Origin: Escherichia coli
GTDB lineage: Bacteria > Pseudomonadota > Gammaproteobacteria > Enterobacterales > Enterobacteriaceae
NCBI RefSeq assembly: GCF_003790525.1
Contig: NZ_CP033635.1
DNA length: 64,000 nucleotides
Strand: one strand, 5' to 3'
How positions within the stretch are numbered: the first letter of the stretch is position 1; each line of letters opens with the position of its first letter. Under the pieces are notes generated by a model. The model did not search any database. It saw only the letters and a list, made by a program, of their open reading frames with translations, and was not told the origin of the DNA. This document shows positions 39,663-48,940 of this stretch, piece by piece. The translations under genes were made by a program, and so were the position numbers.

Positions 39663-41351
39663 ATGAGTGGTGAAAAAAAGGCGAAAGGCTGGCGGTTCTA
39701 TGGTCTTGTAGGTTTGGGCGCAATAGTACTGCTTTCCGCTGGCGTCTGGGCGTTGCAATATGCTGGCAGTGGGCCAGAAAAAACGTTGTCGCCGCTGGTG
39801 GTGCACAACAATCTGCAAATCGATCTCAATGAGCCGGACCTCTTTCTCGACAGCGACTCTCTGAGCCAGCTTCCCAAAGACCTCCTTACCATTCCGTTTC
39901 TCCACGATGTTCTGAGTGAAGATTTCGTTTTCTATTATCAGAATCATGCCGATCGTCTGGGCATTGAAGGCAGCATTCGCCGCATTGTCTACGAACACGA
40001 TCTCACACTAAAAGATAAGCTCTTTTCGTCACTCTTAGATCAGCCCGCGCAGGCGGCGCTATGGCACGATAAACAAGGCCATCTTTCTCATTATATGGTG
40101 CTGATCCAGCGAAGTGGTTTAAGCAAGCTGCTGGAGCCATTGCTGTTTGCCGCTACCAGCGACAGCCAGTTAAGTAAAACGGAAATCAGTAGTATTAAGC
40201 TAAATAGTGAAACCATCCCGGTTTATCAGTTGCGCTATAACGGCAATAACGCCCTGATGTTCGCAACTTATCAGGACAAGATGCTGGTATTTTCCAGCAC
40301 GGATATGCTGTTTAAAGATGATCAGCAGGATACCGAAGCCACGGCGATCGCAAGTGATTTGTTGAGCGGTAAAAAACGCTGGCAAGCCAGCTTTGGCCTG
40401 GAAGAGCGTGCTGCTGAAAAAACGCCAGTACGCCAGCGCATCGTGGTCAGCGCCAGGTTGCTGGGGTTTGGCTACCAGCGATTAATGCCTTCTTTTGCTG
40501 GCGTACGCTTCGAAATGAGCAACGACAGCTGGCATAGCTTTGTGGCGTTAAATGATGAATCCGCCAGCGTAGATGCCAGTTTCGATTTTACGCCGGTATG
40601 GAACAGTATGCCTGCCGGGGCCAGCTTCTGTGTGGCGGTGCCGTATTCGCATGGTATTGCCGAAGAGATGCTTTCGCACATCAGCCAGGAAAACGACAAG
40701 CTGAACGGGGCGTTAGATGGTGCAGCCGGGCTGTGCTGGTATGAAGATTCAAAATTGCAAACTCCGCTGTTTGTCGGTCAGTTTGATGGTTCTGCCGAAC
40801 AAGTGCAATTGCCAGGAAAACTGTTTACGCAAAATATTGGTGCGCACGAAAGCAAAGCGCCAGAAGGTGTTTTGCCGGTAAACCAGACTCAGCAGGGCGA
40901 AGCGCAAATCTGGCGTCGCGAAGTGAGTTCCCGATACGGCCAGTATCCGAAAGCGCAGGCGGCGCAACCCGATCAATTAATGTCGGATTATTTTTTCCGC
41001 GTGTCGCTGGCGATGCAAAACAAAACGCTGCTTTTCTCCCTCGATGACACGCTGGTTAATAACGCGCTGCAAACACTGAATAAAACCCGCCCGGCAATGG
41101 TGGATGTGATACCCACTGAAGGCATCGTTCCGCTCTATATCAATCCACAAGGCGTGGCGAAACTGCTGCGTAACGAAACGCTGACCAGTTTGCCGAAGAA
41201 TCTCGAACCGGTTTTTTATAACGCCGCACAAACTTTATTAATGCCGAAGCTGGACGCTTTATCTCAACAACCGCGTTATGTCATGAAGCTGGCCCAGATG
41301 GAACCCGGTGCCGCCTGGCAGTGGCTACCCATAACCTGGCAGCCGCTATGA
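39663..41351 (+). CDS. yfaA: YfaA, DUF2138-family membrane-anchored protein; first gene of the alpha-2-macroglobulin cluster
   Basis: ORF 39621-41351 with start trimmed to [24 protein letters not shown] (N-terminal transmembrane anchor), about 562 aa. Confidence 0.8.
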
Positions 41352-41971
41352 GGCACGGACTGCTGGCGCTGATTTGCTGGCTGTGTTGTGTTGTTGCCCA
41401 TAGCGAAATGCTGAATGTCGAACAATCCGGGCTGTTTCGCGCGTGGTTTGTACGCATTGCACAGGAACAGCTCCGCCAGGGGCCAAGTCCGCGCTGGTAT
41501 CAGCAGGATTGTGCGGGCCTGGTGCGATTTTCGGCGAACGAGGCGCTGAAAATTCACGACAGCAAATGGCTAAAAAGTAACGGTATAGCAAGTCAATATT
41601 TGCCGCCTGAAATGACGCTAACACCTGAACAGCGTCAACTGGCGCAAAACTGGAATCATGGGAACGGAAAAACTGGCCCCTATGTGACCGCGATTAATTT
41701 GATTCAGTACAACAGCCAATTTATTGGCCAGGACATAAACCAGGCGCTGCCTGGCGATATGATTTTTTTCGATCAGGGCGATGCCCAGCACTTAATGGTC
41801 TGGATGGGGCGTTACGTCATCTACCACACCGGAAGCGCCACGAAAACTGACAACGGAATGCGCGCAGTCAGTCTGCAACAACTTATGACATGGAAGGACA
41901 CCCGATGGATACCCAACGATTCCAATCCCAATTTCATTGGCATTTATCGTTTAAATTTTCTGGCGCGATAG
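41348..41971 (+). CDS. yfaT: YfaT, DUF1175-family exported protein
   Basis: ORF 41321-41971 with start trimmed to [20 protein letters not shown] (signal peptide), about 207 aa; ATGA overlap with the yfaA stop. Confidence 0.8.
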
Positions 41972-48159: not shown

Positions 48160-48163
48160 TGCT

Positions 48164-48940
48164 ATGCGAAAGATTTTTCTTCCGTTGTTACTGGTGGCGC
48201 TTTCGCCTGTCGCTCACAGTGAAGGTGTGCAGGAAGTCGAGATTGATGCACCGCTCTCTGGCTGGCATCCGGCAGAGGGCGAAGATGCCAGTTTTTCACA
48301 ATCGATCAATTACCCGGCGTCGTCCGTCAACATGGCAGATGATCAAAATATCTCAGCGCAGATCCGCGGCAAAATAAAGAATTATGCTGCGGCGGGTAAA
48401 GTTCAGCAGGGCCGGCTGGTGGTCAACGGTGCCAGTATGCCGCAGAGAATTGAATCCGATGGTTCATTTGCACGCCCTTATATTTTCACGGAAGGCAGCA
48501 ACAGCGTGCAGGTCATCAGCCCGGATGGGCAAAGCCGGCAAAAAATGCAGTTTTACTCAACGCCGGGTGCTGGAGTGATCCGCGCGCGTTTACGACTGGT
48601 TCTCTCGTGGGATACGGACGATACCGACCTCGACCTTCACGTTGTTACGCCCGATGGCGAACACGCCTGGTACGGTAACACCGTGCTGAACAACAGTGGT
48701 GCACTGGATATGGATGTCACGACGGGGTACGGCCCCGAGATTTTCGCCATGCCAGCGCCAGTTCACGGGCGCTATCAGGTGTATATCAACTACTATGGCG
48801 GACGCAGCGAAACGGAATTAACCACCGCCCAACTGACGCTGATCACCGATGAAGGATCGGTCAATGAGAAACAGGAAACATTTATTGTACCGATGCGTAA
48901 TGCTGGCGAGCTGACGCTGGTGAAAAGTTTTGACTGGTGA
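48164..48940 (+). CDS. yfaP: YfaP, DUF2135-family exported protein
   Basis: 258-aa ORF with signal peptide (MRKIFLPLLLVALSPVAHSE), 4 nt after yfaQ. Confidence 0.8.
   Translation: MRKIFLPLLLVALSPVAHSEGVQEVEIDAPLSGWHPAEGEDASFSQSINYPASSVNMADDQNISAQIRGKIKNYAAAGKVQQGRLVVNGASMPQRIESDGSFARPYIFTEGSNSVQVISPDGQSRQKMQFYSTPGAGVIRARLRLVLSWDTDDTDLDLHVVTPDGEHAWYGNTVLNNSGALDMDVTTGYGPEIFAMPAPVHGRYQVYINYYGGRSETELTTAQLTLITDEGSVNEKQETFIVPMRNAGELTLVKSFDW

Follow-up and report, generated by a model that had tools for sequence, protein, structure and literature searches.

The yfaA-yfaT-yfaS-yfaQ-yfaP operon of Escherichia coli, five-gene orthologue of the Pseudomonas aeruginosa Mag macroglobulin system

The yfa operon and its distribution

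The DNA considered here is a 64,000-nucleotide (nt) window from Escherichia coli (contig NZ_CP033635.1) which carries, at positions 39663 to 48940, the five genes yfaA-yfaT-yfaS-yfaQ-yfaP, encoding a large alpha-2-macroglobulin (A2M) and four partner proteins. Judged by sequence and gene order, this cluster is the E. coli orthologue, in a five-gene form, of the Mag complex of Pseudomonas aeruginosa, a so-called type II bacterial A2M; as such it is already known and is ordinary for E. coli. In P. aeruginosa the magABCDEF genes (PA4492-PA4487) present the same order on the same strand, namely DUF2138 (MagB), DUF1175 (MagC), A2M (MagD), DUF2300 (MagE) and DUF2135 (MagF). The analysis covered the five genes and their flanks, the listing of open reading frames (ORFs) and the junctions being read directly. 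This reading confirmed the layout proposed by the first-pass annotation, i.e. five same-strand genes joined by an ATGA overlap, an overlap of about 67 nt, an abutting GTG and a 4-nt gap, and a hydrophobic segment was present at the N-terminus of all five products, in keeping with its proposal that each bears a signal peptide or membrane anchor. Its view of the five genes as an exported A2M cluster with translational coupling holds.

Two types of bacterial A2M have been distinguished, both of which occur in E. coli, and type II, which is devoid of a thioester, is encoded by the six-gene magABCDEF operon (PMC5764988, PMC3735191). MagB, which alone among the Mag proteins has a transmembrane helix, holds the periplasmic MagD at the inner membrane and also stabilises it (PMC5764988, PMC3735191). 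MagD binds MagA, MagB and MagF in a 1:1 ratio, and traps tobacco etch virus (TEV) protease non-covalently once an engineered bait has been cut; its processing from 165 to 100 kDa depends on MagB and MagE and is blocked by deletion of magE (PMC5764988). In 2025, a CRISPR interference (CRISPRi) screen revealed that the mag operon protects P. aeruginosa from the peptidoglycan-targeting type VI secretion system (T6SS) effectors VgrG3 and Tae1 (PMC12663445). The earlier description of the module as essentially uncharacterised can thus not be upheld, since its P. aeruginosa orthologue has been studied both biochemically and genetically (PMC3735191, PMC5764988, PMC12663445).

The features of the locus are as follows.

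39534-39551 and 39562-39591, + strand: two hairpins 3' of gyrA, the second followed by a U-run (terminator scan and fold z)
39647-39659, + strand: CsrA/RsmA-like hairpin CACA-AGGAA-UGUG, with GGA in the loop, overlapping the yfaA Shine-Dalgarno (SD) sequence
39663-41351, + strand: yfaA, 562 amino acids (aa), DUF2138, MagB orthologue; ATG start with AAGGA 7 nt upstream
41348-41971, + strand: yfaT, 207 aa, DUF1175/'MagC' family; ATGA overlap with the yfaA stop
41905-46509, + strand: yfaS, 1534 aa, MagD orthologue; ATG preceded by GGAAGGA and 6 nt; 67-nt overlap with yfaT
46006-46008, + strand: W1368 codon of yfaS, TGG here and TGA in K-12, the sole lesion behind the K-12 yfaS pseudogene
46510-48159, + strand: yfaQ, 549 aa, MagE orthologue; GTG start abutting the yfaS TAA
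48164-48940, + strand: yfaP, 258 aa, DUF2135/YfaP_C, MagF orthologue; 4-nt gap after yfaQ
48970-49012, no strand assigned: bidirectional intrinsic terminator common to yfaP and the convergent atoB (z -2.97)

The hairpins that follow gyrA (fold z -5.75; none of 200 shuffles equally stable) are likely to be the gyrA terminators and to mark the upstream edge of the yfa operon. The terminator scan showed no excess of terminator-like sites within the operon, an Rfam scan of positions 39300-49200 gave no match, and none of the five proteins matched a PADLOC anti-phage defence model. The hairpin at the yfaA SD is present in both the minimum free energy and the centroid structures, its energy being no better than that of shuffles, and the yfaA leader is kept in four Escherichia species, with SDs of the CA(G/A)GGAU type in Superficieibacter and Enterobacillus. 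In P. aeruginosa, RsmA targets the magA leader (PMC3735191), and no link between yfaA and CsrA was found in the literature; we offer this hairpin as a lead towards a possible CsrA/RsmA-type site.

The yfaS gene consists of 1534 codons with zero internal stops, and the intact 1534-aa protein originally called here stands, as a frameshift or internal stop was looked for and neither is present. In K-12 MG1655 yfaS (b4500) is an annotated pseudogene, as the first-pass annotation had it, and the 9278-nt regions of the two strains align without any indel, such that the single W1368 TGG to TGA change accounts for its splitting. The implication that intactness is special to the present strain did not stand. 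The 9.7-kb stretch is 100% identical to that of strain 165 (NZ_CP020509.1) and 95-99% identical to that of almost all other complete E. coli genomes, and 80% or more of the region is present in at least 5178 of 5426 complete genomes. The K-12 nonsense allele, counted through an exact 33-mer carrying the TGA and hence a count of this allele only, occurs in 364 of the 5426, all sampled matches being laboratory K-12 derivatives. For all five genes the ratio of non-synonymous to synonymous substitution rates (dN/dS) lies at 0.075-0.146 in comparison with K-12 and at 0.03-0.11 in comparison with E. albertii. Based on these genome counts, the restriction of the nonsense allele, among sampled matches, to K-12 and the low dN/dS, an intact operon under purifying selection is the normal E. 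coli state, with K-12 as the exception. Approximately 247 of the 5426 genomes carry less than 80% of the region, and in some, such as strain 19KM1831 (NZ_CP151026.1), only the gyrA and atoB flanks match, the whole yfa operon being deleted.

A scan with a YfaT pattern of one genome per GTDB species identified 525 species with a relative, from which the best 80 loci were analysed. These belong to three Escherichia, two Superficieibacter, Enterobacillus, Yersinia alsatica, Ca. Methylobacter and approximately 70 Pseudomonas, with 40-98% identity, and in all 80, wherever the locus is complete, the five genes are colinear and on one strand, which, together with the distant metagenomic loci described below, bears out the expectation that they co-occur. 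An extra yfaP paralogue (magA) leads every Pseudomonas or Methylobacter locus with an intact upstream end, and no yfaP-like ORF was found upstream of yfaA in any of the seven Enterobacterales loci, E. coli included. Seven loci encoding distant YfaQ relatives (27-35% YfaQ identity; GC content of 31-43% in the four complete loci) were also examined: four hold full five-gene operons without magA (L086, L088, L089 and L091), while three contig-cut loci carry A2M-YfaQ-YfaP. The five-gene form is widespread and probably ancestral and, given that these distant relatives are likewise without magA, the absence of MagA from E. coli would not represent a loss.

The yfaT/yfaS overlap and the macroglobulin YfaS

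Three elements of yfaT and yfaS are needed for what follows.

41876-41911, + strand: SD and ATG element CAACAACTTATGACATGGAAGGACACCCGATGGATA in the 3' end of yfaT, comprising GGAAGGA and the ATG (41905) of yfaS
44455-44514, + strand: bait-region motif NRSER..VK.LERPRRE[ED]VD, YfaS aa 851-870, counterpart of the MagD bait ANRSERG
45097-45123, + strand: degenerate thioester site EPWGGVINT, YfaS aa 1065-1073, homologous to YPYGCVEQT

The element CAACAACTTATGACATGGAAGGACACCCGATGGATA is nearly nucleotide-invariant across 81 yfaT homologues and in the yfaS frame reads as GGAAGGA, six nucleotides and ATG. In the yfaT frame of the same homologues, rare A-ending codons are fixed at the overlap, namely CAA for Q178 (81/81), ACA for T181 (70/70), CGA for R186 (80/81) and ATA for I188 (75/81); among the remaining Arg codons of these yfaT genes CGA accounts for 9%, and the gene-wide mean fraction of A- or T-ending codons is 0.20. 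RNA structure was considered as the cause of this invariance and rejected, nothing stable being predicted (z -0.29). Among the distant loci, L086, L088 and L089 retain GGAAGGA-N6-ATG, while the start position of L091 reads Val, presumably a GTG start codon, and the distant loci hold no other start that would give the A2M a signal peptide. Since these loci exhibit the same architecture, we conclude that the 67-nt overlap is an ancestral trait of the yfaT-yfaS pair, in which the n-region of the YfaS signal peptide is encoded inside the C-terminal part of yfaT.

In most pseudomonads a second ATG lies on the yfaT stop (ATGA); Escherichia has ATA at this position, such that only the ATG at 41905 provides YfaS with a signal peptide. 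The RefSeq/PGAP record of the 100%-identical strain 165 starts the A2M at a GTG at 41995, without overlap, a start that deletes the signal peptide. Because of this loss, and because the conservation of the overlap contradicts the GTG, the RefSeq start is probably wrong and the true start the ATG at 41905. Similar cases were noted in metagenomic contigs: in L091 a magC homologue is present at 4865-5422 and was missed by the gene caller, and in L086 the A2M gene had been given a start beyond the magC stop, with loss of the signal peptide. The magC/A2M overlap is thus a source of systematic mis-annotation; the macroglobulin start should be moved to the conserved ATG, as constructs or annotations from the downstream start lose the signal peptide.

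YfaS matches the Pfam families MG2 (344-440), A2M_BRD (661-806), A2M (871-953) and bMG10 (1409-1517), with weak sequence matches to C5 and CD109 in the PDB. Its signal peptide spans approximately aa 1-38, with N-terminus MDTQRF...LVGTGLANA|DD and predicted cleavage at ANA|DD. A lipobox (IAAC25) was rejected, as C25 varies among relatives (Escherichia sp. E1V33 has Y) and precedes the hydrophobic core. A twin-arginine translocation (Tat) signal, suggested by the 'MDTRR' leader of relatives, was equally rejected: E. coli reads TQR, the RR lies some 18 residues before the hydrophobic core, and the leader residues are dictated by the overlapping YfaT frame.

As the first-pass annotation had stated, no CxEQ thioester motif was found anywhere in YfaS; the site reads EPWGGVINT. 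The earlier assignment of the protein to a non-thioester class applies to E. coli YfaS and does not extend to the operon family. Of 79 operon relatives, 16 keep YPYGCVEQT (A2M aa ~1059-1086; loci L009, L011, L018, L021, L022, L028, L030, L033, L036, L044, L051, L055, L056, L071, L074 and L081), most pseudomonads show GGVEQ, and all Enterobacterales resolved show GGVIN; moreover, C[VT]EQ is present in all six distant A2Ms examined (L083, L084, L086, L088, L089 and L091). Given that many operon relatives retain CxEQ, the loss of the thioester in E. coli is to be read as derived and graded rather than as a defining trait of this family.

The bait ANRSERG was defined in MagD of P. aeruginosa (PMC5764988). 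The equivalent YfaS residues 851-870 are among the most conserved 20-aa windows of the protein (0.93 compared to a mean of 0.75 in an alignment of 25 sequences). The motif is conserved across Enterobacterales, Pseudomonas and Methylobacter, the opposite of the hypervariable baits of classical A2Ms. In this respect the YfaS bait looks more like a dedicated processing site than a classical bait.

YfaQ and the smaller partners

The four partners had been listed as DUF-only proteins; their assignment to DUF2138, DUF1175, DUF2300 and DUF2135 was correct, yet they are not featureless, as is clear from YfaT and YfaQ in particular. YfaA (DUF2138) has a predicted helix at its N-terminus (residues 11-34) without a cleavage-type motif and, as MagB orthologue, may consist of an N-terminal transmembrane anchor and a periplasmic scaffold. 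YfaP (DUF2135, E 6e-17) is 49-58% identical to the downstream copy of Pseudomonas and 37-43% to the upstream copy, and by analogy would be an A2M-binding accessory protein, orthologous to MagF (and its paralogue MagA). With P. aeruginosa MagC (E 4e-102), crystallised as PDB 7bk8 and NlpC/P60-like in fold, YfaT shares approximately 75% identity, and in Pfam it matches DUF1175 and, weakly, NLPC_P60 (E 0.0013). Residues C55, H148 and H160 are invariant in 20 sequences, within the motifs DCAGLV, QHLM and YHTG. These features place YfaT in the NlpC/P60-like cysteine peptidase superfamily, with its papain-like fold and Cys-His-His/polar triad, probably as a peptidoglycan-binding protein whose catalysis is putative; in the MagC structure the triad reportedly adopts an inactive conformation, together with peptidoglycan binding.

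YfaQ is a member of a small family: only 294 relatives were recovered when 1.84 billion representative proteins were searched in full. Of these, 55 full-length members (27-48% identity) were aligned as the basis of an AlphaFold2 (AF2) model with a predicted local distance difference test (pLDDT) of 93.3 and a predicted template modelling score (pTM) of 0.87. Pfam recognises DUF2300 twice (aa 84-205 and 412-532) in addition to SpoIID, while the model points to three modules.

46579-47244, + strand: penicillin-binding protein (PBP)/beta-lactamase-fold domain, ~aa 24-245, with S60xxK63, S108-C-G and K195-T-W
47443-47844, + strand: SpoIID-like domain, ~aa 312-445, with E334
47845-48156, + strand: C-terminal zincin-like module, aa 446-549, with HEYLH 520-524 (48067-48081) and E536

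A Foldseek search with the model returned 408 matches at E <= 0.001, including beta-lactamases (E 5e-6). In the first module (~24-245) the order of secondary structure elements fits the beta-lactamase topology, helix 59-73 carrying S60 at its N-terminus and strand 192-200 carrying K195-T196. Across the 55-member alignment S108-C109 and K195-T196 do not vary, and at least 90% of the sequences keep S60 and K63. The motif spacings are 48 and 135 residues; those of class D enzymes are 48 and 138. In a weak profile match to Clostridioides difficile PBP3 (E 0.12), GSlWK aligned with GSVFK (SxxK) and SCG with SCN (SxN). The third positions deviate from the canon, reading SCG and KTW/F, with the glycine of KTG replaced by W or F. 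On the basis of the model, we infer that the motif residues superpose on those of beta-lactamases.

In the second module, a profile search aligned the invariant E334 with the Glu of the SpoIID 'ASE' motif (E 7e-4), which we take to be the catalytic Glu; YfaQ thus shows both a SpoIID match and a Glu at the position expected in that family. In the third, all 77 of 77 sequences from the loci carry HEYLH, and the diverse set shows no variation at H520, E521 or H524 and keeps E536 in at least 90% of its members. The HEYLH stretch sits on a predicted helix (512-526) after three short strands, and zincin matches to the module were all sub-threshold, comprising MJ1213 (E 0.58), which we take to be a minigluzincin, Peptidase_M78, SprT-like and DUF6782.

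A tandem DUF2300 repeat was considered and rejected, since the two stretches show no pairwise similarity (score 29 compared to a shuffle mean of 31) and have different folds in the model. The two matches, one PBP-like and the other covering the SpoIID C-terminus and the HExxH module, are probably an artefact of the Pfam family definition. In our reading of the model, whose module boundaries are approximate, YfaQ would be secreted and would combine two enzyme-like modules that recognise peptidoglycan with a third that may be a metalloprotease, and it looks like an unrecognised cell wall-directed enzyme.

Function, significance and comparison with known systems

Considering the five proteins together, we regard it as probable that the operon specifies a Mag-orthologous periplasmic macroglobulin trap, tethered to the inner membrane and linked to the cell wall, that protects the cell from incoming hydrolases. 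By analogy we infer that the E. coli system works as Pseudomonas Mag does, and the roles of the YfaQ modules are proposed on the same footing. All five products would cross the inner membrane via Sec; YfaA (MagB), anchored by its N-terminal helix, would tether and stabilise the soluble 165-kDa YfaS (MagD), to which YfaP (MagF) would bind. YfaT, with its NlpC/P60-like fold, and YfaQ, with its PBP-fold, SpoIID-like and HExxH modules, would link the assembly to peptidoglycan and be required for the macroglobulin to mature. Once its bait is cut, YfaS would close upon the attacker with no covalent thioester bond involved; overall, the periplasm and the cell wall would be shielded from hydrolases that arrive from outside, among them proteases and T6SS effectors directed at peptidoglycan.

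Several observations weigh against this proposal. VgrG3 is not a protease (it is a lysozyme-like glycoside hydrolase), so that classical bait-cleavage trapping offers no obvious account of the protection conferred. In P. aeruginosa, MagE was found in the cytoplasmic fraction and MagC went undetected in the complex in the 2013 study (PMC3735191), while DUF1175 (MagC) has been classed as an inactive peptidoglycan-binding family (PMC10318531). The zincin assignment of the YfaQ C-terminus is tentative, coming from HExxH and the sub-threshold matches only. The E. coli operon has five genes without the leading MagA, the MagF paralogue, and its thioester site (GGVIN) is more degenerate than the GGVEQ of Pseudomonas. 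A promoter scan revealed no sigma-70-like promoter in the 70 nt before yfaA, and our literature search found nothing functional on E. coli yfaA, yfaT, yfaS, yfaQ or yfaP.

The main rival, which we consider rather unlikely, is a peptidoglycan remodelling or repair machine in which YfaT and YfaQ do the enzymatic work and the macroglobulin, rather than trapping foreign enzymes, serves as their scaffold or as a regulator that holds them back or in place. Such a machine would account for the cell wall enzyme folds and conserved catalytic-type residues in three of the four accessory modules, for the pairing of type I A2M with the peptidoglycan synthase PBP1c (PMC5764988), for a mag phenotype that concerns peptidoglycan-targeting effectors, one of them a glycoside hydrolase rather than a protease (PMC12663445), and for the high conservation of the bait, as expected of a dedicated processing site. 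It is less easily reconciled with the trapping of a protease by MagD in vitro after bait cleavage (PMC5764988), with the reported inactivity of MagC on peptidoglycan (PMC10318531) and with the W or F in place of the KTG glycine of YfaQ, which may block substrate access; moreover, no Mag or Yfa protein is known to act on peptidoglycan. A separate and speculative reading, which we consider improbable, concerns YfaQ itself: it might be a secreted sensor-protease for wall damage, akin to BlaR1, whose PBP-fold and SpoIID-like modules sense exposed or cut peptidoglycan (stem peptides and denuded glycan) and whose HExxH module cuts the bait. If this were true, the trap would be fired by the cell's own protease upon wall damage rather than by the attacker, which would explain both the protection from the non-protease VgrG3 and the need for magE in the 165-to-100 kDa processing of MagD.

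Defence against host proteases was the original hypothesis for bacterial A2Ms, and a host-directed colonisation factor, in which the macroglobulin neutralises host proteases such as neutrophil elastase, or antimicrobial peptides, that get through the outer membrane, would agree with the gut commensal and pathogenic lifestyles of E. coli, nearly all strains of which keep the operon, and with the statements that MagD is cut by human neutrophil elastase and that magD mutants are less virulent (PMC3735191, PMC5764988). We nevertheless hold it to be improbable, because the operon also occurs widely among soil and plant pseudomonads, in a methanotroph and in environmental metagenomes, where there is no animal host, and the only clean loss-of-function phenotype to date is interbacterial (PMC12663445). 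Least credible is that the operon is a decaying remnant in E. coli which has lost its thioester and magA. The K-12 nonsense mutation, the degenerate GGVIN site, the want of a recognisable promoter and the strains that lack the whole region might be so interpreted, but each of the five genes has an intact ORF and a dN/dS within 0.03-0.15, the catalytic-type residues of YfaT and YfaQ are invariant, the great majority of genomes keep the region with the nonsense allele confined to laboratory K-12 among sampled matches, and distant relatives share the five-gene form, which is therefore not a loss. A host-protease-only role and a remnant thus fit the distribution and selection data less well than the protective macroglobulin trap outlined above.

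The cluster itself adds nothing new, being a near-universal, annotated E. coli operon whose Pseudomonas orthologue is under active study. The useful leads are modest, namely the start codon, the architecture of YfaQ, the conserved bait and the varying thioester state among operon relatives. MagE has so far been called a possible chaperone, and the predicted combination of PBP-fold, SpoIID-like and HExxH modules provides point mutants with which to probe how the macroglobulin is linked to peptidoglycan and T6SS resistance. The definition of type II as lacking a thioester describes a derived state and not a family property. Work on type II A2Ms could be moved to E. coli, given a non-K-12 strain or a K-12 strain with TGA repaired to TGG.

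Some neighbouring features were also recorded. GyrA (gene at 36887-39514) carries S83L and D87N, the classical fluoroquinolone resistance pair, which fits a clinical isolate. The interval between ubiG and gyrA (~32908-36387) holds three genes, for a frameshifted GntR regulator, a major facilitator superfamily (MFS) transporter and an enzyme of the mandelate racemase/muconate lactonising family; in K-12 ubiG and gyrA adjoin, and here the gyrA-proximal end of this stretch is of low GC (0.39-0.42). The glpT gene (~18210-19567) is frameshifted according to the annotation of the 100%-identical strain 165 record.

With regard to known systems, the closest is Mag, with which the E. coli operon shares an A2M devoid of thioester and lipobox, the bait NRSER..ERPRRE and an A2M start that overlaps the 3' end of magC; it differs, beyond the points weighed above, in lacking the second, ATGA-type start of most pseudomonads. 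Trapping and the inner membrane complex were shown in P. aeruginosa only. Type I A2Ms (ECAM/YfhM of E. coli and Sa-A2M of Salmonella) resemble YfaS as large periplasmic macroglobulins with multiple macroglobulin (MG) domains and a bait, genetically coupled to a protein of the penicillin-binding fold. They are lipoproteins with a CLEQ thioester, act as covalent traps and are partnered by PbpC (the bifunctional synthase PBP1c), whereas YfaS has neither CxEQ nor a conserved lipobox, its operon is flanked by gyrA and atoB rather than pbpC, and in YfaQ, its partner, the PBP fold shares one polypeptide with SpoIID-like and HExxH modules.

YfaQ also invites comparison with the beta-lactam sensor-transducers BlaR1 and MecR1, from which it differs in being soluble and secreted, in its reversed domain order and in the inserted SpoIID-like domain; the zincin homology is without statistical support (E 0.58-1.7), and we know of no signalling partner for YfaQ. 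Compared with the SpoIID/SleC-type lytic transglycosylases of the sporulation DMP machinery, the corresponding domain of YfaQ sits between two other modules, in a Gram-negative periplasm and without a SpoIIP-type amidase. Finally, while the lack of a thioester, the monomeric state, the periplasmic location and the membrane tethering via a partner distinguish YfaS from eukaryotic alpha-2-macroglobulin, C3-C5 and CD109, it has in common with these proteins the MG-domain architecture and the bait region domain.

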